Of a stretch of DNA of 64,000 bases, positions 2,876-43,195 are shown piece by piece. The notes below the pieces were generated by a model, which was given only the letters and a program-made list of their open reading frames with translations, was not told the DNA's origin and made no database searches. Source of the DNA: a virus; UHGV virus genome UHGV-0277504, one strand, 5' to 3'. How positions within the stretch are numbered: the first letter of the stretch is position 1; every line of letters begins with the position of its first letter. A program made the translations under genes and the position numbers.

Positions 2876-3097
2876 ATGAGAAAACAAGTAATGGTATATT
2901 CAAAACTAAATTGTAAAGAATGTGGGAACCACTTTATGGTTCCTAGAAAAAGAGCAAAAAGAAGAGAAGAAGGTCATATCAAAGACTTATATTGTGTAAA
3001 ATGTAAAAAAACAACAAAACATATTGAGGATAACAGAAGTGAAACAGAAAAATTCTGGGATGAATTCCATTCAAATAGAAAATATCAAAAAAATTAA
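2876..3097 (+). CDS. small zinc-ribbon protein
   Basis: CKECGN...CVKCKK four-Cys motif; AAGGATTTGA SD. Confidence 0.55.
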   Translation: MRKQVMVYSKLNCKECGNHFMVPRKRAKRREEGHIKDLYCVKCKKTTKHIEDNRSETEKFWDEFHSNRKYQKN

Positions 3098-3127
3098 TAA
3101 AAAATTTAAAAAAGTTTTAAAATAAAC

Positions 3128-3156
3128 TTGACACAGGGTTATTTTTATGTTATGAT
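3128..3156 (+). promoter_or_regulatory. sigma70-consensus promoter TTGACA-17-(TGt)TATGAT driving non-coding transcript
   Basis: TTGACA 3128-3133, 17-nt spacer, extended -10 TGTTATGAT; shares aaaatttaaaaaagtttt upstream element with promoter at 1847. Confidence 0.7.
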
Positions 3157-3163
3157 ATATGTA

Positions 3164-3981
3164 TCAAATAAAACAAATCCCTTACACAACTGTTTTTTCA
3201 TTACGTTGTTTTCCAGTTCAAACAATAACAGCGTTTGCCTATAACTAATGATTAGACTATAAACAAATCAAGAGGAAATTAGTCTATTCCTCTAATATAA
3301 TTTTAATACAACTAAACATCTGAACATAGTGACTGAATAAGTGAGTGATGTCACTAAGGTGTAAGAATGTCTTAGGAAGCCTACTAAAGTGTGAGAACCT
3401 TTAGAGGTATCCTCAGAGGGATATTTATTCCGAAAGGATTGCTTAGCACTTGGATATAAGGATTATACGGTAGAGAGACTATCAGTGATGAATCACTAGT
3501 CAAGGTCTTAGCGGAATCTTGACTAGTTACGCTACTAAAATCATTTACGTGGTTGGAGCCTAGAAATAGGTTTGATAATGATTGTCTTTCGTACAAGTAG
3601 CACAAACCCACGATAAAGCTAAAGAAAACAAAAAATATATGTTATTTTAATTCTTCACATCGTGTGAAAGTTGGTAAGTAACTGTCCTTACCCCTATACT
3701 GTGGAAACACTCATAAAAGTGGACTATGGCTAGCTACCATATAGAACTTTCTATGACTAGGTTACCTAATAATAATTCTTGTATTTCAGGTTCCCCGTGA
3801 AAAGGGATATGTTTGGATGTTTAGTTGTATTATACAACTAACTTCTCTTTCATTTTAATATTCATATCAATGGTTTTTGACTCCTTTACCATTGATAGAG
3901 AGAAACCCCTTATAAGAACATATTCATTTGTACAAACAAACACCTCCTTATAAAAAACAAAAAAACTTATAAGGGGTTTTT
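3164..3981 (+). ncRNA. candidate large (~820 nt) structured non-coding RNA, class unknown
   Basis: no ORF on the transcribed strand, GC-richer than flanks, many perfect local hairpins (ACTAGTCAAG 3495-3504 / CTTGACTAGT 3519-3528), closing helix AAACCCCTTATAAG 3901-3914 / CTTATAAGGGGTTT 3966-3980 then T-tract. Confidence 0.45.
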
Positions 3982-4763: not shown

Positions 4764-5324
4764 ATGTCTAATAAAGATATGAAAAAACCTACTGTTGTAG
4801 GTGGTGTAAACTTATCCACACGTGTACGCAGTAAGACTTTTTGGGTATCACTTGTAGGTATACTAGTTGGTGTAGTTACTCAAGTAGGTACACTTTTTGG
4901 TCTTGATTTAGAAGACCAAGTAGGACAATACTCTGAATTAGCTACAGGTATTATTACAGCTTTAGGTATTTTAGGTGTTTTACAAGACCCTAATACTAAA
5001 GGAATTAAAGATAGTGGTATTGCACAAACATACACTTCTCGTAGAGATAGTAAAGACCCTGAACAAGCAATAGATTGGCAAAATAATACAGAATTTGATT
5101 TAGGTGTAAAGAAACCTCAAGAGTTTGATACTTCTGAATCTTTCTCTGATGATAGTGATGAAGAAGAAGTAGATTTAGAAGAAGAAGTAGCTAAAGATGA
5201 TTCTGTACAAGAAGACACAAATAAACCCCTTGGAGCTGGAAAAGGAGAGTCTGTAGACTCTATGAAAAACACACCTCTAAATGTAGGTAGTCAATCAGCT
5301 AAATCAAAAGGCGGTGAAAAATAA
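4764..5324 (+). CDS. holin (phage_holin_1-like), acidic C-terminal tail
   Basis: hydrophobic N-terminal core WVSLVGILVGVVTQVGTLFGLD..., ITALGILGVL; directly upstream of endolysin. Confidence 0.7.
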   Translation: MSNKDMKKPTVVGGVNLSTRVRSKTFWVSLVGILVGVVTQVGTLFGLDLEDQVGQYSELATGIITALGILGVLQDPNTKGIKDSGIAQTYTSRRDSKDPEQAIDWQNNTEFDLGVKKPQEFDTSESFSDDSDEEEVDLEEEVAKDDSVQEDTNKPLGAGKGESVDSMKNTPLNVGSQSAKSKGGEK

Positions 5325-5326
5325 TA

Positions 5327-6058
5327 ATGAAAACTAAAAAACAAGCTTTAAAATGGATTTTAAATACTATAGGTCAAGGTATAGATTGGGATAAAATGTA
5401 TGGGTTTCAATGTATGGATTTAGTTGTTGCTTATTTATATTACGTTACTGATGGGAAAATAGCAATGTGGGGAAATGCTATTGATGCTCCTAAAAATAAT
5501 TTTAAAGGTACTGCTAAAGTAATTAAAAATTACCCTGCTTTTAGACCTGAAGCAGGAGATATAGTAGTTTGGTCTTATGGTAATTTTAGTACTTACGGAC
5601 ATATTGCTGTAGTTATAGATGGAGACCCTTACGGTGACTTGCAGTATATCACAGTAGCTGAGCAAAATTGGAATGGTTTAGGACTATACAAACAAGAAGT
5701 TACTACAAAACGTATTCATAATTACGATGGTGTATCTCATTTCATAAGACCTAAGTTCAAAAAAACAGTTAAAAAAGAAGATAACACTCTTACAAAAGAA
5801 AAAAACAACAAAAAAACAAAAGGAAAAAAATTAAAAGTATCAACACAAAGAATAAACTACACTATGGATAAAAGAGGTTATAAACCTAAATTTGTTGTAA
5901 TACACAATGATGCTGGTAGTTCTTCTGCACAACAGTATGAACAAGGATTAAAAAATGCAGGATACAGTAGATATGCTCAAGGAGTAGCACATGCATACGC
6001 TTCTGATGGTTATGTGTGGGAAGCAATATCAGAAGATAGAATAGCTTGGCATACGGGT
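5327..6058 (+). CDS. endolysin exon 1: CHAP peptidase domain + start of amidase_2 domain (ends ...AWHTG)
   Basis: CHAP motifs QCMDLV...WGNA...GDIVVW...GHIAVV...EQNWNG..HFI; amidase_2 begins YKPKFVVIHNDAGS...AWHTG; the in-frame K + TAG after 6058 belong to the intron. Confidence 0.8.
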
Positions 6059-8377: not shown

Positions 8378-8565
8378 TGAAAAATTTATTTAAAGTGTTT
8401 TTAGATAATTATGAAGTATTTGTGGTTGCTAATAATGATAAAGAAGCAGAAAACCATTGTTTTAAATTTTTAGATTTTAATAAAATTAGTATAAGTAAAG
8501 TAAAGCAAGTTAAAAGTGATGATATTTATCCTTATTTTGTTAGGGGTAAAAGTTATGCAAGCTAA
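8378..8565 (+). CDS. hypothetical protein
   Basis: TAGGTGG SD upstream of ATG 8378. Confidence 0.4.
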
Positions 8566-21945: not shown

Positions 21946-21976
21946 AAAGCAAGAGTTTTTATCTCTTGCTTTTTAA
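21946..21976. terminator. bidirectional rho-independent terminator at convergence of + and - blocks
   Basis: AAAAGCAAGAG-tttttat-CTCTTGCTTTTT, A-tract on one side and T-tract on the other. Confidence 0.7.
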
Positions 21977-23437
21977 ATTATCTATTTTATTTTTCAATAT
22001 ATCTATTTCTTTTTGATAATCTCTTATTTCAAATTCATAAGCTTCATATTCTATCTGATTTAATTTTTTTAATTTATTTACATATTCTCTTACAATTTTT
22101 TTATTTAATTTAGATTCTATAGATATTTCTTTTAAAGTTAAATTTTTTTCATATAATTTTTTAACTAATAAAATATTATCTATATCATAAAAAGAATTTT
22201 TAAAAACGTTAAACCAATTAACATTAGGATTATATAAAGAGGAATTCTTAATACTAGTTTTAATGTATTCAAAGTCAGAAAGCTCAGCATTTATTTCTAT
22301 ATAGTTAATACCATTATTAATAACCGCTTCTTTTTTCTCTTTATCTACTCTTTGTTGTTCTTCTAAAGTTAGTTTAAATCTAGCACCTTCTCTTAACTCT
22401 TTATAATGTTGAGCACCATGAACTTCTATCACACAATTTAAATTTGGTAAATAGAAATCATACCTTCTTCTTTTTAAGAAATCAAAAGTTTTTTCTTGTA
22501 TATAAAAAATACCTAATTCATCTAAGTAAGCTTTAACGACTTTTTCTGGATAACTTCTTTTTATATTAAATTTACTTTTGTTTTCTTTATTTTTACTTTT
22601 TAATTCCGCACAATAACCACAATTTTTTTGTACTCCATTTAAAAAATGGTCTACTCTAACCTTCTTAACTGTACCGCAAGTTAAACACTTAACTTTAAAC
22701 ATATTTCTTGTATTTATAGTACCATCCTTATTTATAAACTCTTCATTAAAATAATCAACTATCTCATAGTTATTATTTACTTCACCTATTAAATTTTTAT
22801 TAGCATCAGAATCTTTATTAGCTAAATAAGATATATTACAAGTAAAGAAATTATACTCATTATATAATCTATTTTTATTATCATGTTCTAATCTTATATA
22901 ACCAATTTCTTTACCTTTATTATTGTACTTAGTAAAATAGTCTAAGATAGTGACGTAACCCTTATAGTTATTAAATTCAAAGTAAACATCACAACCAATA
23001 CTATTTTTTAAATCTACTTTACCATTATTTTTTAGCGGTAAACTTTCATAATACATCTTTCTTTTAGTTGATTCTTTACTGTGTTTTAATTTATCACCTA
23101 CTATACTTTTAAGTGATACATTTAAAAAACTTTCTTTATTTATAACATAATAGTTATTATCATACTTTAATTTTAAACGAGCTTTTTTATTATCTTTAGT
23201 ACTAGGTAAATATTCTTCTATTACTATATAACCTTTAACACTTATATACTCAAAAGGAACTTCTGTATTATTACATTTTTTAAAATCATATACTTCTTTT
23301 CCTGATGGCTGTGTTTTAGTAGGTACATTAGTTAAGTCTATGTAACAAGGTTTATTATTTTTATATACTTTAATTATTTTATCCATTAAATATTTCTCCT
23401 TACTATTTTTTATCCTAGGTACACTATAATATAACAA
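21959..23437 (-). CDS. large DNA-binding protein with DUF559/Vsr-like PD-(D/E)xK-type motif and zinc-ribbon; possible homing-endonuclease-like
   Basis: N-terminal tandem GY.I....Y repeats; CLTCG...CGYC; FDFLKRRRYDFYLPNLNCVIEVHGAQHY resembles DUF559/Vsr-like core; AAGGAGA SD. Confidence 0.45.
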   Translation of the reverse strand: MLYYSVPRIKNSKEKYLMDKIIKVYKNNKPCYIDLTNVPTKTQPSGKEVYDFKKCNNTEVPFEYISVKGYIVIEEYLPSTKDNKKARLKLKYDNNYYVINKESFLNVSLKSIVGDKLKHSKESTKRKMYYESLPLKNNGKVDLKNSIGCDVYFEFNNYKGYVTILDYFTKYNNKGKEIGYIRLEHDNKNRLYNEYNFFTCNISYLANKDSDANKNLIGEVNNNYEIVDYFNEEFINKDGTINTRNMFKVKCLTCGTVKKVRVDHFLNGVQKNCGYCAELKSKNKENKSKFNIKRSYPEKVVKAYLDELGIFYIQEKTFDFLKRRRYDFYLPNLNCVIEVHGAQHYKELREGARFKLTLEEQQRVDKEKKEAVINNGINYIEINAELSDFEYIKTSIKNSSLYNPNVNWFNVFKNSFYDIDNILLVKKLYEKNLTLKEISIESKLNKKIVREYVNKLKKLNQIEYEAYEFEIRDYQKEIDILKNKIDNLKSKR

Positions 23438-23702
23438 AAATTAACGGGGCGGGGTATGAGTACATAAGAAAGTTATTTATTATTATTTTGTTGACTTTTG
23501 TAGATTATAGTTTATTTTTAAGGTGGTTTATAGGGAACCTGAGGTAGGTATACTAGGGTATTATTACACCCCCTGTTTATGGCAATTTATAACGGGGCGT
23601 ATATATAAAAAAATTATACAATATAATAATAACATTATATCATTGTTTATTTATTTCTTTTTATTTATTTTCTTAATTTTTTTATTTATTTTTTTATATT
23701 TT

Positions 23703-25991: not shown

Positions 25992-26138
25992 CTATTTGAT
26001 AAAAATATTTATACTATCTTGAATACTAATCAAGTAATCAAGAACAGTAATAACTGTTGTACCACCTACTAAGGTAGCCAAAGCGTCAGTTAATTCTGTG
26101 CTTTTATATGATTTGTTTTTATATTTAAATTTAATCAT
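25992..26138 (-). CDS. small 48-aa protein
   Basis: AAAAAGGAGC SD; below track threshold. Confidence 0.35.
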   Translation of the reverse strand: MIKFKYKNKSYKSTELTDALATLVGGTTVITVLDYLISIQDSINIFIK

Positions 26139-26141
26139 TTT

Positions 26142-26390
26142 TTAAGCTCCTTTTTTTATATATTTTGTTTTATTATCATTAAGAATAAGTTTAACACATT
26201 TAGGAGTAGTTGAGATTTCTTTTGCTCCTGTGCCATATAGATTTAAACATGATAAATTTATTTTATAGAACAAGTCATCACATTCTTCAATGTTAGACCA
26301 TTGAGAAACATCAGGTGTTATAGTTCCCTGCTCTTTAATTCTTTCGTATGTGTCGGCTATATAGTTTTTATATTCTTTCATTTGTAACAA
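26142..26390 (-). CDS. hypothetical protein
   Basis: ORF track. Confidence 0.5.
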   Translation of the reverse strand: MLQMKEYKNYIADTYERIKEQGTITPDVSQWSNIEECDDLFYKINLSCLNLYGTGAKEISTTPKCVKLILNDNKTKYIKKGA

Positions 26391-26460
26391 TTCCTTTCTT
26401 TATTTGTTAAGTTAATAATAACATGTGTAGGGGTTGATTGTCAACCCCTTTATTTAATTT

Positions 26461-26601
26461 TTATTTTTGTAACTCTTCTAGTTCTTTTTTAGCTTTCTTA
26501 ATCTCTCTTCTTGCTTCCGCTTCTTCTTTCTTAGTAAGGTCTTGGAATTCCAATTCCATTTCTAAGTTCTCGATAATGCTTTCTAGTTCTAATTCTCTCA
26601 T
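26461..26601 (-). CDS. small 46-aa acidic coiled-coil protein
   Basis: ATG 26601; below track threshold. Confidence 0.3.
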   Translation of the reverse strand: MRELELESIIENLEMELEFQDLTKKEEAEARREIKKAKKELEELQK

Positions 26602-26666
26602 TTGTAACAATTCCTTTCCTTATTTGTTAACTCTATAATAACATGTTGTGTTTAAGTTGTCAATAG

Positions 26667-26798
26667 TTATTTTGAATATTTTACAATTTTATTTGCTTTC
26701 AAAAATGTAACATCTTGACGGTAGCTTTTTAATTCTTCTGCAAAATTTTCATTATTTTTCATACCGATTAATTTTAAAGTTGTTGTAATTTTTTTCAT
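26667..26798 (-). CDS. small 43-aa protein
   Basis: GAAGGGAA SD. Confidence 0.3.
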   Translation of the reverse strand: MKKITTTLKLIGMKNNENFAEELKSYRQDVTFLKANKIVKYSK

Positions 26799-27411
26799 TT
26801 AAATCAATTCCCTTCAAATTCTATAATTTTTTTATTTAATTTCTTTAGGTTAGAAGCGGTTGACCGCTTCCTTAACCTTACAATTATATAATATCATAGT
26901 TTCAAGTGACTGTCAACACTTTTTAAAAAATTAATTCTTTTTCTTTTTTACTATCCATATACATTTTTATTTCACAACATAACCAAAGTGTTATCATTTG
27001 TAACAACCCCTAATTAATAATTTTTTTATATAATTCTTGTAAGGTTTGTTATTGCTTTCCCTTACAACTATTATATTACTACACATTAAAAACAATTGCA
27101 ACCCCTAAATGCAAATTTTTTTAAGAAAAAAAAATAAAAAAAATTTGTAAAACCCCTTTACAAATACCGTAGAATTTGTTATTCTATATATATAGAAAGA
27201 AAGCGGTGACCTGCATCCATGTCCGCTATATAAATGAAGTTGTAGGGGGAAAGACTAGCCCTAAACCTTTTAATATAAAAAAGTTATTTAATTTTATTTT
27301 TATATTAAAAAAAGATTCCCACTCTATTATAGCATTTTTAATATAATATTGTCAAGTACCAATTTTACACCCTTTTATTTATTATATAATTTTTTTATAT
27401 AAATATAAAAC

Positions 27412-27441
27412 AAATAAAAAACCTAGGAATTTAATCCTAGG
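27412..27441 (-). terminator. rho-independent terminator (CCTAGGAATTTAATCCTAGG family, minus)
   Basis: hairpin then T-tract on minus strand. Confidence 0.6.
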
Positions 27442-27487
27442 TAAATTATTATTTAATATAATTTTTTTATTTAATTCAGAAGCGGTT

Positions 27488-27769
27488 TTATTTAACCGCT
27501 TCTTTTTCTTTAACTGTTTCTAGTGCCCATTTGATAGTTTCTTCAATGTTGTAGCTTTGGAATACTACACCGCCACCGAACCATTTAGCAGTGTACTTTT
27601 TAAAACCATATAGCTTATTAATCTCATCATAATCCCAAAGGCTAATACCTAGGTCGCTAAAGTGTACTACATATCTAGGGTTTCCGTTATTATCATTTTC
27701 AATTCTGAAAGCTGTAATCTCGTTTCCATTTACTGTCACTGTTTCTTCATATTTAAAATTCTTTTTCAT
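27488..27769 (-). CDS. hypothetical protein
   Basis: ORF track. Confidence 0.5.
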   Translation of the reverse strand: MKKNFKYEETVTVNGNEITAFRIENDNNGNPRYVVHFSDLGISLWDYDEINKLYGFKKYTAKWFGGGVVFQSYNIEETIKWALETVKEKEAVK

Positions 27770-27979
27770 TTAAATCAAATCCTTTTCTATATATTTTTTA
27801 TTAAATTTCCTTATTTGCTTTAAGTTATTTCCTTAACCTTACATCTTTATATTAACATGTTTCTTATAAGCTGTCAACACCTTTTTAAAACTTTTTTTTT
27901 AATTTTTTTCTTGCTGTTGTTTCCTTTCCCTTACAAGTATTATTATAGCAAAAAGGGGCTATGATTACAACCCCTATTT

Positions 27980-28297
27980 TTAAATAATTTCATCTAAAAC
28001 AATTTCCCCGTTATCAATAACGATAACACCACCTTGAATAATAAAGAAAATCAATCCTTTATATTCCCGTGCTATTCCGTAATCATAAGGCGTTTTACCA
28101 AATAGTTTGTTACGTTTATAGAATGTAATATCTTCACTGTGTAAACCACCAGGTACGTGTACAGTTAGTTCAGGATGCCAACCTGTGCCCCCTAAATCAT
28201 TTCTGTATAAGTTTTTGGACTTATACCCATCATAACCAAATGTTTCCATTATATTATTTGCAATTAATTCTATATTATTTTTATACAATATTATCAA
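27980..28297 (-). CDS. hypothetical protein
   Basis: ORF track. Confidence 0.5.
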   Translation of the reverse strand: MIILYKNNIELIANNIMETFGYDGYKSKNLYRNDLGGTGWHPELTVHVPGGLHSEDITFYKRNKLFGKTPYDYGIAREYKGLIFFIIQGGVIVIDNGEIVLDEII

Positions 28298-28858: not shown

Positions 28859-29080
28859 ATGAAAAACGTTAAAAATTTAAAAAATTGGTTAAAAAGAAAC
28901 AATTATGATTTTGAAGAATACAACACGCCAGACGGTTGTGGGAGCACATTGAAAGGGATTATTATTCATAACATTGAATTTGCTACTGAGAATGATGAAC
29001 TAGTTGCTCTATTCCCTGATGGTGATTATGAACACATGACAAACAGACAAGCTTATAACTTTATTAGAAAAAACATTTAA
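28859..29080 (+). CDS. hypothetical protein
   Basis: ORF track; AAGGAATTGA SD. Confidence 0.5.
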   Translation: MKNVKNLKNWLKRNNYDFEEYNTPDGCGSTLKGIIIHNIEFATENDELVALFPDGDYEHMTNRQAYNFIRKNI

Positions 29081-29112
29081 TAAAAAAATTAATTAAAAAG
29101 GAATGAATTAGA

Positions 29113-29313
29113 ATGACACATATTAAAGTAGATAAAAGAAAATCATTAAATAAAAATATAAAAGAAAATGGATTAAAAAAAGAATTAAATAAAAATAGTG
29201 GAAAAATAAAAATAAAAGAAAGTTTATTAAGAAAAGCAAAAAGAAATAATGATATAGAAAAAATTAATAAACTAGAAAATGAATTAAAAAAATTATATAA
29301 TCAATTAGACTAG
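29113..29313 (+). CDS. lysine-rich small protein
   Basis: ORF track; AAGGAATGA SD. Confidence 0.45.
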   Translation: MTHIKVDKRKSLNKNIKENGLKKELNKNSGKIKIKESLLRKAKRNNDIEKINKLENELKKLYNQLD

Positions 29314-29333
29314 GGAAAACCCTAGTCTTTTTA
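29308..29333 (+). terminator. rho-independent terminator
   Basis: GACTAGGGAAAACCCTAGTC + T5. Confidence 0.7.
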
Positions 29334-29353
29334 TGTTCTATATCTTATATCTT

Positions 29354-29540
29354 TTTTAGGGGAAATCCGTACGATACTACTTGCTATTTTTAGGGGAAAA
29401 TCGACACCAGACTACTTGAAACAACTAGCCTTTTTCATACAATACTACTTACTAATTATGTATATTTATAAGAATATTTGAATAAAATTCATACAATACT
29501 ACTTACATTATATAGGTAAAATATAGACAATACTACTTGA
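29354..29540. repeat. five iteron-like direct repeats (C)AATACTACTT(G/A) at 29373, 29409, 29441, 29494, 29528 plus duplicated ttttaggggaaa
   Basis: read directly. Confidence 0.7.
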
Positions 29541-29582
29541 ATATATAATAGTATTCAGGAAGGTAGTGGGTAGATTAACCCC

Positions 29583-29610
29583 CTAGTATTAAAAAAGATA
29601 TTAATACTAG
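29583..29610. repeat. perfect palindrome CTAGTATTAA-aaaagata-TTAATACTAG
   Basis: read directly. Confidence 0.7.
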
Positions 29611-29943
29611 AGCTAAATCATATTTCAGTTTAGGCTAGGTCTAGTTTCATTTTTGTTAATATTTTTACACGCACTCTTATCCACGCAACCTAAATTAATA
29701 GGTTAATACTACCCCGTTCATATTGAACCTAAGAGTCCTCCCTGTCCTTTATTGCTTGGTAGACATCACCAACTATGGTAGAAGGTATAGTGTATCTATA
29801 CCTACAAAGTATAAGCATTGCATATCTTATACCCGCCCTGTGAGTTTTATGCAGGTGCTCGTGGCTCACTACCACCACATCGTTGTCGCTATTCCTATAG
29901 GTTCCTATGCATGACCTATACTCATCAGCTCTTTATCTTATTG
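29583..29943 (-). ncRNA. candidate minus-strand structured transcript from GC-richer ORF-free core
   Basis: minus-strand promoter TTGACC-17-TATAGT (rc of 29951-29979); no credible ORF; GC-richer than flanks. Confidence 0.3.
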
Positions 29944-29950
29944 TACTTAT

Positions 29951-29979
29951 ACTATACCATACTTTTAATATCAGGTCAA
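29951..29979 (-). promoter_or_regulatory. promoter TTGACC-17-TATAGT (minus)
   Basis: rc. Confidence 0.45.
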
Positions 29980-30045
29980 GTAAAAAATGATAACTTTTAC
30001 TTATTATTTGATATAAGTTTATCTTATTATAAATAAAACTTTTTT

Positions 30046-30121
30046 GAAATTTTTAAGCAACCTATCGTAAAAATTTTTAAGGGGGTATCATCCTAAATTT
30101 TTTAAGGTCTTCATCCTAAAA
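30046..30121. repeat. ~27-bp tandem direct repeat x2.5 (TTTTTAAGG-n6-ATCCTAAA)
   Basis: read directly. Confidence 0.65.
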
Positions 30122-30123
30122 TA

Positions 30124-30160
30124 ACAAACCGCTTCGAGAATTTAATCTGAAGCGGTTTGT
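30124..30160 (-). terminator. terminator hairpin ACAAACCGCTTC...GAAGCGGTTTGT (minus)
   Basis: GAAGCGG-family stem. Confidence 0.5.
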
Positions 30161-30162
30161 TA

Positions 30163-30363
30163 TTATAAAGTATTGTTAACTTCTTTAAGTAATTTTAATA
30201 ATTCATCATATTTTTCATCTGTCAATCTACTATTTTCTTTTAAAGTTTTATCTAAGAAGTTAGGTAATTCTTCATCAGAATAAGATGTTCCTTTACCTAA
30301 TTCTTCTAAATAACGTTTTACTATATACTCTACTGTTTCTAATTCTTTTAGTGATTCTCTCAT
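30163..30363 (-). CDS. hypothetical protein
   Basis: ORF track. Confidence 0.5.
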   Translation of the reverse strand: MRESLKELETVEYIVKRYLEELGKGTSYSDEELPNFLDKTLKENSRLTDEKYDELLKLLKEVNNTL

Positions 30364-30387
30364 ATAAACACTCCTTAATTATAAACA

Positions 30388-30723
30388 TTACTTCATACCT
30401 TTAAAAAATTTATTTAATTTAATCTTTTCTTTTTCTTCTTTTTCAAGTCTTTCTTTATTTTTTTCATCATAGAAATCAATTAATTCGTAAATAGTATCAA
30501 ACTTAGTTAATTTCTTTTTAAAATTTCTACCTTTAAGTGTGTTTAATTCAAACATTTCAACATAGTTACCCTTTGATATAGTAACAATACCTCCTTCTTT
30601 ATCAAAAACACACTCTACACCATACTCATCATTAGTTATAGTATAATAAGTATTATACCCTACATAACTTTTTCTTCCATGTTCTTTAATATAATTTTTA
30701 AATCCAAGAATATCAATATCCAT
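30388..30723 (-). CDS. member of 4-gene paralog family (~113 aa, KNYI..G...L.D.Y..)
   Basis: paralogs 30864..31205, 31207..31554, 31847..32185. Confidence 0.55.
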   Translation of the reverse strand: MDIDILGFKNYIKEHGRKSYVGYNTYYTITNDEYGVECVFDKEGGIVTISKGNYVEMFELNTLKGRNFKKKLTKFDTIYELIDFYDEKNKERLEKEEKEKIKLNKFFKGMK

Positions 30724-30863
30724 TTGTATAATCTCCTTTATATTTAATACCCTTAGCTTAAGGACTTTAAAAGTCTATATGAAGCGGTAATATTTTTCTA
30801 GTACTATTTATCCTAGAAACAATACCGCTTCTATATAAGGCTCTAAATAGCTTTAGAATTAAT

Positions 30864-31205
30864 CTAGCTTAAAAAGTCTTTAACACTTGATTCAATTCTT
30901 CTTTGTTTTCTCTTTTTTTCATTTTCTTTTCTAGTAAGGTCTTCATGTAATTCATCAATTAAATCAAATACACTAGAGTGTAATTCAATATCTTTGTTAA
31001 GTTGTTCTAATTTATTTAAATCACTAAGTTCTACCTCTAATACAGTTTTTCCATTTTTACAAAATAGTAAATAATTAGAAAAAACATTTGGTTTTTTATA
31101 TTGTATCTCATAACCTTTACCTAAGTCAATATTTTTAATTCCTTTATCATTCATTCTACCATACTTATCAATGTAATTTTTTAAGTCTATACTATCAAAT
31201 CTCAT
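30864..31205 (-). CDS. paralog family member
   Basis: ~60% identical to 31207..31554. Confidence 0.55.
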   Translation of the reverse strand: MRFDSIDLKNYIDKYGRMNDKGIKNIDLGKGYEIQYKKPNVFSNYLLFCKNGKTVLEVELSDLNKLEQLNKDIELHSSVFDLIDELHEDLTRKENEKKRKQRRIESSVKDFLS

Positions 31206-31206
31206 C

Positions 31207-31554
31207 TTATAAACCTCCTAAAAAGTCTTTAACTTTTGATTCAACTTTTCTTTGTCTTCTCTCTTCTTCACTTTCTTTTTTAGTACATTCTTCATATAAA
31301 TCATCAATTAAATTAAATACATTAGGGTATATTAAAATATTTTTATCAAGACATGTTACTTCAACCATATTATCAAGGTCTACCTTTAATACTTCTTTTC
31401 CATTTTTACAGAATAATAAATGGTTGGAAAAAATAATTGGTTCAAGATATTGTATTTCATACCCTTTTCCTAAATCAATAGTTTTAATTCCTTCATCATT
31501 TACTCTACCATACTTATCAATATAATTCTTTAAGTCTATACTATCAAATTCCAT
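31207..31554 (-). CDS. paralog family member
   Basis: tandem duplicate. Confidence 0.55.
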   Translation of the reverse strand: MEFDSIDLKNYIDKYGRVNDEGIKTIDLGKGYEIQYLEPIIFSNHLLFCKNGKEVLKVDLDNMVEVTCLDKNILIYPNVFNLIDDLYEECTKKESEEERRQRKVESKVKDFLGGL

Positions 31555-32805: not shown

Positions 32806-32877
32806 TACTACATGGACTATACATTAGAATAGTTTAACTATATATTAGAACAATTGAATAGTATATCAGAATAGTTG

Positions 32878-32914
32878 AGTACCGCTTCAGTAATATAGAA
32901 GCGGTACTTTTTTG
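32878..32914 (+). terminator. rho-independent terminator AGTACCGCTTC...GAAGCGGTACT + T6
   Basis: read directly. Confidence 0.7.
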
Positions 32915-33644
32915 TTTATTATTAAGTTGTATACAATAGTAATTTAATGTTTAAGTATATTGTAGTAGTAATATAAATAAATTATAGTAAACAGGTAACG
33001 TCAAAACAGGTCAAGACAACGAATAGGACAGACAAAAAAATCCTAGGGTATTTCTGTTGGGTTGTTTCTTCTGTTATCCATTTTTACTGTATTTTCTTAC
33101 TCTTAGTATTCTATATCATATAAAAAACTTAGTGATGTTCTATTGTCAATTATAAAATTCTTAAGGTATTTATTTTATTTCTCTTTCCTTACTATTACTA
33201 ATTATATGTAATTGTAAGGTAGTTCTTATGTTACTTCTATTTTTTCTTATTCTTTATTAATATATATATATATAATAGACAAATCTTTTCTTATTTCCTT
33301 TTATTCTTACTCTTACATATTACTTTATTACTACCTCTATTACCTACTACCTATTATTTTTTTATTATTATATTACTTATTAATAAATCCTCTATATTGT
33401 TTATACACATATATAGAGGGCTTTACTTATGTTATTTTTTATTGTTATTATTAATTTTACTTATTATTTGATTTACGTACAATGACTTCTAATATATTAT
33501 ATTCTTCGTTATAGTTAACTCTCTGATAACTATTATCTTCTACACCTTCATTTGCAGTATCAAACCATTTTTCTTCTCCTGTATTATATATTAACCCAAT
33601 ACTAGTTAGGGAATATTCTTGGCGTTATCTTAACAGCTCCTTTT

Positions 33645-42886: not shown

Positions 42887-43195
42887 TTAAGTTAAATCAA
42901 TTTTATATAACTTCTTATTAATTTTATGTTCTTCAAATTTAAAACCTACACCCTTCTCGTAAAATCCCTCTAACTTAACTTCTACTGTCTTAGGGCTTAA
43001 AACATATCTAGTGCCTAAAGAATCTTCATAACTACCTTTAGTTTCAAGTAGTATTGTTCCTTTTTTTAGTAGGGTATGACAACCATGATTAGAGTATATA
43101 TCTTCTTTAACTACTTTATATTCTTCTATTTTGTTATCTAATAACCAACTATACATACTTTCTAGCACAATAGAATCTACATTTTTAACTATCAT
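42887..43195 (-). CDS. hypothetical protein
   Basis: ORF track. Confidence 0.5.
   Translation of the reverse strand: MIVKNVDSIVLESMYSWLLDNKIEEYKVVKEDIYSNHGCHTLLKKGTILLETKGSYEDSLGTRYVLSPKTVEVKLEGFYEKGVGFKFEEHKINKKLYKIDLT

Follow-up and report, generated by a model that had tools for sequence, protein, structure and literature searches.

What occupies the repeat-rich stretch of about 800 bp, devoid of credible open reading frames (ORFs), that lies at 29314-30162 of a 64,000-nucleotide stretch from the virus genome UHGV-0277504? The DNA analyzed (the whole stretch, hereafter the window) belongs to a myophage of Staphylococcus epidermidis that falls within Sepunavirus, a genus of the Twortvirinae (Herelleviridae). 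An earlier note on its letters had listed in this gap, which we call the hub, five iterons, a palindrome, a GC-richer core with its own leftward promoter and a tandem repeat; it read the whole as a replication origin or a partition/packaging site and kept a structured non-coding RNA as an alternative for the core. The ORF listing of the window agreed that no credible ORF is present. Our analysis showed that the hub is no single functional unit but several separable modules side by side; the iterons can be separated from the RNA gene, both described below, because phages K and SEP1 retain the former without the latter. The best explanation, and one that we regard as reasonably probable, is a composite of an RNA gene, an iteron array and promoter-upstream DNA. 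The hub is thus a conserved cis-element of the terminal repeat beside a swappable cargo slot, here occupied by a new structured RNA gene. The alternative offered by the earlier note proved right for the core, as its promoter is conserved, its pairs covary, its G-U pairs are specific to one strand and no ORF persists among the homologues, while the origin or partition/packaging reading was not demonstrated and applies at most to the iterons.

There is good support for a single, previously undescribed RNA gene that comprises the GC-richer core, the palindrome and the leftward promoter. By BLAST, the 871-bp hub was 99% identical to phages phiIPLA-C1C and 110 and 96-98% identical to Twillingate, Terranova, 80A/B and the BE phages; Quidividi and BE04 were absent from the hub matches. 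The core (window ~29731-29997) was also found at 74-82% identity in three other Twortvirinae lineages in which the flanks are unconserved, namely CF5 (filed as Silviavirus), some 15 PG-2021 phages of S. xylosus and relatives, and Baoshanvirus (phiSA_BS1/BS2 and Golestan101), in every annotated record of which the match falls in unannotated DNA. A further CF5-like copy was retrieved from IMG/VR; two IMG/VR scans and one metagenome scan gave no more divergent homologues, returning only Sepunavirus, a CF5-like contig and BS2.

The TTGACC-17-TATAGT promoter is present as first described and carries in addition a TG extended -10. The promoter scan was by itself not above chance (8 sites found, 6.0 expected), and the site is credited because it is conserved in relatives rather than by its score: CF5, the homologue L011, PG-2021_10, BS1 and Golestan display TTGACA, TTGACT or TTTACA, then 17 nt, then TGnTATA(G/C/T)T.

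To examine the fold, six sequences standing for about four independent lineages were aligned, and RNAalifold returned 69 pairs in 13 helices. Among the predicted pairs 94.2% of cells were paired, compared with 41-45% when the partners were slid by 1-3 columns, and both partners had changed in a compensatory way in 23 pairs, a number that was 2-5 after sliding; 500 shuffles never gave pairing and compensatory values as high. Most compensatory changes fell in helices 2, 3, 4, 7 and 8. Moreover, six pairs are G-U in all sequences and would read C-A on the opposite strand, therefore the RNA strand is fixed as the minus strand, in agreement with the promoter direction; the minimum free energy (MFE) was -104 kcal/mol on that strand (z -2.8), compared with a z of -1.7 on the plus strand. 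The GC-richer core (38.7% GC over 29620-29945 against 26.3% for the window, confirming the earlier description) is the multi-helix 5' domain of the RNA, which contains a near-invariant internal loop, A(U/A)GAG opposite GGAA, within CUGA(U/A)GAG-stem-GGAAUAG. A calibrated covariance model of this domain, R1, scored 219-234 bits in CF5, L011, PG-2021_10, BS1/BS2 and Golestan101, and at most 10 bits elsewhere.

The palindrome CTAGTATTAA/TTAATACTAG, indeed perfect at 10/10 positions (29583-29592 and 29601-29610), is not an origin element, being instead the 3' hairpin of the RNA. Judged from single-sequence folds, this CUAG-closed hairpin forms in all four lineages with stems that differ in sequence, and it is followed by CUAGGGG(G/A)U(U)AA(U/G)UCUACC, in which CTAGGGG-TAA-TCTACC is invariant or nearly so across all lineages. 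Neither is it an intrinsic terminator: its stem is A/U-rich, it has no U-tract and GGGGGUUAAUC follows on the RNA strand; terminator-like sites were found in the hub scan only at 29307-29328. The 5' end of the RNA is placed at ~29943 from the position of the -10 box, and the 3' end at ~29556 because conservation with the CF5-type phages stops at 29542-29556; the transcript may read through as far as 29307-29328, where the minus strand has its first terminator-like hairpin beyond the RNA. Two long-range helices proposed by hand or by MFE, GGGUAG..AUUAACC with GGUUAAUCUACCC and CAGGGAGG with CCUUCCUG, were discarded for inconsistent support in CF5 or PG-2021_10. The features of the hub are collected in Table 1.

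Table 1. Features of the hub and its borders (window coordinates).
Feature	Position	Strand	Basis or remark
Terminator hairpin, bidirectional	29307..29328	both	9-bp stem, 5 G-C pairs; T-run good on +, poor on -
Two 35-bp units TTTTT(T)AGGGGAAA-N10-12-ACTACTTG	29352..29421	+	Tandem Repeats Finder (TRF) period 35, 1.9 copies
Five direct iterons (A)TACTACTTR	29374..29539	+	spacing 35/33/54/34 bp
Structured non-coding RNA, ~390 nt	29943 to about 29556	-	alignments, RNAalifold, pair counts, MFE
RNA 3' module: CUAG-closed hairpin (29583-29610), then conserved GGGGGUUAAUCUACCC	29565..29612	-	repeat search, alignment, folds
RNA 5' domain, several helices	29726..29936	-	covariance model R1, 227.9 bits
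Sigma-70-type promoter TTGACC-17-TATAGT, TG extended -10	29951..29979	-	promoter scan and conservation
Inverted repeat CTTAT-N8-ATAAG	30000..30017		about 25-40 bp upstream of -35 box
Three degenerate repeats, A/T tract AAATTTTTAAG and ATC[CG]TA boxes, period 24-26 bp	30047..30118	+	repeat search
Hairpin terminator, 19 bp, 95% complementary	30117..30167		ends minus-strand genes 30163-31554; right border of gap

The RNA is outside every described family. Rfam 15 (4227 models) gave no match in the whole window at the gathering threshold; at E values up to 10 there was nothing in 29634-30034, and weak hairpin-type matches were obtained only at the two terminators and the palindrome. ARAGORN detected no tRNA or tmRNA in the core. 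Several resemblances were considered. The sequence CUGA(U/A)GAG-stem-GGAAUAG recalls the hammerhead ribozyme core (CUGAUGA ... GAAA), but the C and U of CUGA lie within a covarying helix (CG/GC/GU; CG/UA), so that the putative C3 forms a covarying Watson-Crick pair (columns 41-44 with 79-82); GGAAU stands on the 3' strand in place of GAAA and the A15.1-U16.1 pair after it, and no hammerhead model matched at E up to 10. A K-turn or box C/D reading of the A(U/A)GAG/GGAA loop, tried by hand, misfits the standard geometry, and T-box mimicry from GGUGGUA was dropped without Rfam support. The same fate befell CRISPR-repeat mimicry from ACGAGCAC, in which only GAGCA is invariant, which has no Rfam support and which is also unneeded, AcrIIIA1 (gp17) alone accounting for anti-CRISPR activity; the comparison had been with the type III-A tag ACGAGAAC.

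Promoter-driven non-coding RNAs are known from other Herelleviridae, such as the abundant lncRNA1 and lncRNA2 of phage K (PMC9241854, PMC11598898) and three loci of Listeria phage CKA15 (PMC12282133), and they share with this RNA an ORF-free locus and a host-type promoter of its own, in phages of the Twort-like or SPO1-like kind. However, the K lncRNAs show no sequence or profile similarity to it: nhmmer and covariance model R1 detected no homology to lncRNA1/lncRNA2 (best score in K at most 10 bits), nor any copy of the RNA in phage K (65 kb examined, lncRNA1/2 loci included), in SEP1 or elsewhere in the window. They also adjoin tRNA genes, whereas this predicted RNA lies in the terminal repeat and has a structure supported by covariation. 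By BLAST, the K lncRNA regions matched the window only at 3105-3340, which is 81-95% identical to the 3' part of the lncRNA2 region and is probably one of the other non-coding RNA loci to which the earlier note alluded.

Some GenBank records annotate small protein genes in the core, and the window does contain ORFs of 49-72 codons; coding sequences are called there in several records, as Twillingate_011 ("putative membrane protein") and as hypothetical proteins in Terranova, BE24 and BE25. We nevertheless find this explanation scarcely credible. No frame is open across the lineages, with at least five stops in each of the six, and the longest open stretch shifts frame between homologues; the substitutions in helices are compensatory, not codon-like, and the core is unannotated in most records. 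Twillingate_011 itself, a low-complexity sequence, overlies the promoter and is antisense to the 5' end of the RNA. Its counterpart in the window (29911-30033, plus strand, 41 aa) runs opposite to the promoter and 5' end of the RNA, and annotating it as a gene is almost certainly an error. The locus corresponds to "gap 1" (gp11) in the comparison of Twillingate with SEP1 by Chou-Zheng et al., in which gp11, a 41-codon ORF, had been an anti-CRISPR candidate (PMC11662646); we conclude that the ORF is spurious. A homologue of AcrIIIA1 (Twillingate gp17) was not detected anywhere in the window.

The core could also be a decaying relic of a group I intron or of another RNA associated with homing endonucleases, without present function. 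Twort-like phages harbor many group I introns (PMC6597688), and an HNH endonuclease gene occupies the same slot in SEP1. Nevertheless, no Intron_gpI, group II or HEARO model matched, even at E up to 10, the core has its own conserved promoter and does not lie within a host gene, and compensatory changes keep the structure across four lineages, which indicates ongoing selection; a relic is therefore very improbable.

The neighborhood of the RNA gene in SEP1 and K points instead to cargo. SEP1 keeps both flanking genes and the iterons, but between them it carries the gene of a 192-aa HNH endonuclease (SEP1_141) and a small membrane-protein gene (5209-5900 of the SEP1 sequence, L008); the HNH gene has its own TTGACA-17-TATATT promoter and a 5' untranslated region with six ATC[CG]TA boxes, as are found upstream of the RNA promoter in the window. 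The RNA is accessory cargo because phage K lacks it and SEP1 has the endonuclease gene in its place; as it moreover lies in a terminal-repeat island devoted to host takeover, we infer an accessory function of the host-takeover or anti-defence type, not an essential part in replication. The near-consensus sigma-A promoter with extended -10 is of the type used by early genes in the terminal repeats of Twort-like phages, and the host RNA polymerase would transcribe the RNA soon after the terminal repeat enters the cell; the folded RNA would then act in trans, probably by binding a host or phage protein.

The second module is the iteron array, whose five direct copies are present and all on the plus strand: ATACTACTTG at 29374, AGACTACTTG at 29409, ATACTACTTA at 29442 and 29496, and ATACTACTTG again at 29530. 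The motif ACTACTTR occurs 17 times in the 64 kb, counting both strands, five of them within these 166 bp on one strand. The duplicated motif TTTAGGGGAAA was also confirmed; its only two copies in the window are at 29355 and 29389, and together with the first two iterons they make up the two 35-bp units. A perfect 15-nt inverted copy of iteron 5 and its flanks (ACAATACTACTTGAA) lies at 43043-43057, inside ORF 42887-43195, and may be due to chance (E about 0.01 within the window); a search for boundary-type inverted repeats gave only this match and AT-rich noise.

Phage K carries, between gp008 and gp009, four unannotated CTAAGTAGCTC repeats (2953-3040 of NC_005880.2), which read GAGCTACTTAG on the reverse strand of K, the sense of the plus strand in the window. 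As determined by tblastn, the window is reversed relative to K: window 580-21394 corresponds to K from 40.4 kb down to 8.7 kb, the terminal-repeat genes gp010, 011, 014 and 015 of K match window 25992-28297 (gp010/011 at 27980-28297 and 27488-27769), and the right arm of K follows from 42.7 kb onward. By this synteny the hub is the counterpart of the gp008-gp009 intergenic region, and position and orientation, together with a four-way alignment, indicate that the two arrays are homologous. Both are bounded by the terminator on the gp009 side and by the leftward gene that comes next, with the same polarity and the same CTACTT core, both consist of direct repeats at about 2-3 helical turns, and both lie where transcription converges. 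The array of K differs in having four copies at 22-25 bp instead of five at 33-54 bp, no TTTAGGGGAAA units and no RNA gene, and it adjoins the gp008 stop codon.

Phage PG-2021_10 bridges the window and K: its left flank is nearly identical to that of K, while its 4-5 iterons (2085-2260 in L004), AACTACTTG, GTACTACTTA, AACTACTTAG and TCTACTTAG, are of the ACTACTTAGTGA type, the first being preceded by GGGGAAAAT as in the window. Four copies are present in SEP1 (L008 5096-5204), and a metagenomic Sepunavirus (VNIU01001504.1, L017) has four tandem 22-bp copies of ATTCAAGTAGTATTGTTTATAT at ~5620-5710, so that copy number differs between strains. The earlier note had stated that repeats not conserved in relatives would speak against its reading; SEP1 and PG-2021_10 keep the iterons, and in the form GAGCTACTTAG they are found in phage K and in some 200 records of Kayvirus. 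The K array region is in fact conserved in about 210 phage records, and because it appears twice in those that carry both terminal repeats, the array lies inside the repeat. The iterons are thus an older and more widely conserved cis-element than the RNA, and they would be sites for a sequence-specific DNA-binding protein.

In the window and in K, the array is located at the meeting of convergent transcription units, on the border between the very-early block and the rest: gp010-021 of K belong to the early class (PMC11598898), gp142-154 of SEP1 to the "very early" one (PMC11265418), and SEP1 gp142 adjoins the array. In the window, K and SEP1 alike, the adjacent upstream gene or operon, or its promoter, points into the array from the same side. 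This arrangement could be that of a replication origin in the terminal repeat, in which the iterons would bind an initiator, the AT-rich flank would melt and a transcript from the right would activate or prime replication through an R-loop, as in T4 oriF/oriG, the T7 primary origin or ColE1 RNA II; the entering transcript would be the RNA here, the HNH mRNA in SEP1 and that of the gp001-008 operon in K. Iteron-type origins are recognized by at least three direct repeats in one orientation at helical-turn spacing, and the hub has five at 33-54 bp; spacing is near whole helical turns in K and L017 (22-25 bp) and for the 33-35 bp intervals here. The DNA between the iterons is AT-rich, although with 26-28% GC the iteron region equals the genome (26.3%) and forms no distinct trough. 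Immediately upstream of the array, the conserved 3' module of the RNA ends in a G5 run, uncommon at 26% GC, and a position in the terminal repeat would give two copies per chromosome. The likeness to the transcript-activated origins extends to a promoter directed towards AT-rich or repeat DNA and a structured transcript with a G-rich 3' part.

Nevertheless, we consider an origin unlikely. The flanking ORFs scanned are small, with PHROGs of unknown function and no Pfam family, and no initiator gene was found among them, nor was an RNase H site identified; DnaA boxes contain a CACA that is missing from the ATC(C/G)TA boxes. Neither the conservation of the iterons nor their activity, whatever it is, requires the RNA, which sets the hub apart from the transcript-activated origins, and covariation across the whole RNA argues for a folded-RNA function beyond priming. 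Finally, iteron copy number varies between strains, and the authors of transcriptomes of Kayvirus and P100-like phages put putative origins at other low-GC sites (PMC8952766, PMC12282133).

The ends of the terminal repeat raise another explanation. The boundaries of the 8.5-kb repeat of K carry TACTTA boxes, in 12-bp inverted repeats and, immediately beyond the left boundary, in a variable 35-bp tandem repeat (PMC6022877, PMC6445280): on the left, the tandem repeat is followed by TAAGTACCTGGG, and on the right CCCAGGTACTTA is followed by TTTTTTGGGGAAAAT. The hub shares with these elements TACTTA-type boxes, the 35-bp period of its first two units and a TACTTR plus TTTTTnGGGGAAAAT junction, for TACTTG-cta-TTTTTAGGGGAAAAT resembles the right-boundary junction TACTTA-TTTTTTGGGGAAAAT and matches K 8495-8511 at 16/17 positions, its GGGGAAA motif being unique in the window and in the K sequence examined. 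The boundary motif and the 35-bp repeat had at first suggested that the hub was itself a repeat boundary, a possibility that we downgraded because tblastn synteny and the internal array of K, ~3 kb inside the repeat, place the hub within it. The Kayvirus elements, in contrast, are at the repeat edge, and their 12-mers TAAGTACCTGGG and CCCAGGTACTTA had no match anywhere in the window at up to 2 mismatches; local alignments of the K ends to the hub gave noise-level scores.

Better candidates for the ends lie elsewhere. At 23446-23640, a G/C-tract cluster and sequence blocks align with the reverse complement of the K right boundary (K 8385-8525), the best match, cluster included, being 23495-23640, and this is probably a Sepunavirus terminal-repeat boundary. 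Just outside it, a 492-aa ORF on the minus strand (21959-23437) matches HNH/homing-endonuclease PHROGs and has no counterpart in phage K. On the other side, in an 840-bp non-coding gap (32806-33644), ~33045 weakly resembles the left boundary of K; the GenBank records of Twillingate, Terranova and Quidividi, three CPT genomes assembled independently, all start at this point. Boxes of TTACTTAT in the hub-iteron orientation follow at ~33326, 33372, 33423 and 33458, where K has its 35-bp tandem repeat. The terminal repeat of Sepunavirus would accordingly measure ~9.5 kb (~23.5-33.0 kb), and the distance of the hub from the end that is the left one in the sense of K would be 3-3.7 kb, as in K itself.

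Could the array still be a signal for terminal-repeat processing, packaging or ejection? Its TACTTR boxes would in that case be read by the end-defining machinery, the internal array being a secondary or ancestral repeat boundary, or they would act as an ejection pause, similar to a T5 injection stop, that separates the first-entering very-early genes. The boundary likenesses just described and the similarly oriented TTACTTAT boxes just past the putative left boundary are consistent with it, as are the location of the array exactly at the border of early and non-early genes and the BE25 GenBank record (OQ355703.1), which breaks inside the array and has a 77-nt overlap between its two ends; phage 812, moreover, ejects its right end first, for which its authors propose sequence-encoded pauses (PMC12886913). 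The K 12-mer is however absent, the better boundary matches are at ~23.5 kb and ~33.0 kb, away from the hub, and ~3 kb separate the array from the nearest putative end; the 35-bp repeat is also dispensable in phage 812h1. We judge such a signal to be somewhat less likely still than an origin.

A bolder version would have the terminal repeat split by the TACTTR array and its G-tract units, acting as an ejection pause or first-step-transfer stop or else as an ancestral boundary, with the cargo slot behind it and the RNA inhibiting, or acting as a decoy for, a host protein of defence or RNA processing; we give it little credence. If true, only a 5-6 kb very-early block would enter and be expressed first, and the interchangeable cargo would be expressed once transfer resumes. 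In phage T5, first-step transfer ends at the injection stop signal, a non-coding, repeat-rich part of the terminal repeat. The array resembles it in being repeat-rich non-coding DNA in a long terminal repeat, at the distal edge of the earliest genes, but has no sequence relationship to it; T5-like pausing has been invoked by the authors of the phage 812 study (PMC12886913). Origin, end processing or packaging, and ejection pause all rank below the minimal reading of the array as a protein-binding cis-element of the terminal repeat.

The third module lies upstream of the RNA promoter. What had been taken for a 27-bp tandem repeat was confirmed only in part: the repeat search gave three copies, at 30047, 30071 and 30095, of an 11-13-nt core, AAATTTTTAAG(G), with a period of 24-25 bp, and TRF reported nothing there at score 30; these are boxes upstream of a promoter. 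ATC[CG]TA boxes stand at 30064, 30090 and 30113, and they cluster six times in SEP1 (L008 5761-5846) and five times in PG-2021_10 (L004 2794-2901), the cluster being absent in CF5 and BS1. The inverted repeat CTTAT-N8-ATAAG, a possible operator, also occurs in CF5 (CTTATAACTAATGATAAG) and PG-2021_10 (CTTATCATAAATGATAAC) and was not found in BS1. Boxes, A-tract repeats and palindrome together are possibly regulatory promoter-upstream DNA.

Several points weigh against the composite of RNA gene, iteron array and promoter-upstream DNA. The CF5-type phages and Baoshanvirus have the RNA but no clear ACTACTTR array, displaying other AT-rich repeats there, so that the link between RNA and iterons is loose and not every lineage has iterons. 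An origin, too, would fit iterons that adjoin AT-rich DNA and that transcription always enters from one and the same side. The covariation was drawn from six sequences only, of about four independent lineages, and some parts of the fold, such as helices 10 and 11 and the 3' region, are backed only by positions that are invariant or changed on one side; the ends, abundance and timing of the predicted RNA are extrapolated, the limits of the Sepunavirus terminal repeat are estimated from likeness to K, and the trans-acting accessory role is argued solely from genomic context.

Convergent transcription units flank the hub, with plus-strand genes at 28859-29313 on the left and minus-strand genes at 30163-31554 on the right. 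The hairpin at 29307-29328 terminates the former and is annotated in Twillingate as a terminator on both strands; the terminator at 30117-30167 had weak Rfam matches, to hairpin families only. Directly to the right of the hub, three tandem paralogues on the minus strand (30388-31554, 111-115 aa) belong to phrog_9163, a family of unknown function.

For the treatment of S. epidermidis biofilm infections, Sepunaviruses and related phages are candidate agents; their terminal repeats hold host-takeover and anti-defence genes. Within one of them we describe a new RNA family, conserved, promoter-driven, supported by covariation and absent from Rfam, which some records annotate wrongly as a membrane or hypothetical protein; because close relatives carry (C1C, Twillingate) or lack (SEP1) the RNA, it could contribute to differences in host range or in defence evasion. 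A "repeat-rich hub" of this kind, our case cautions, may be unrelated modules side by side. The iteron array, shared with K across genera at the border of the very-early block, offers a testable cis-element for the Herelleviridae, one that bears on where replication starts, how long terminal repeats are defined and whether the genome enters the cell in stages.

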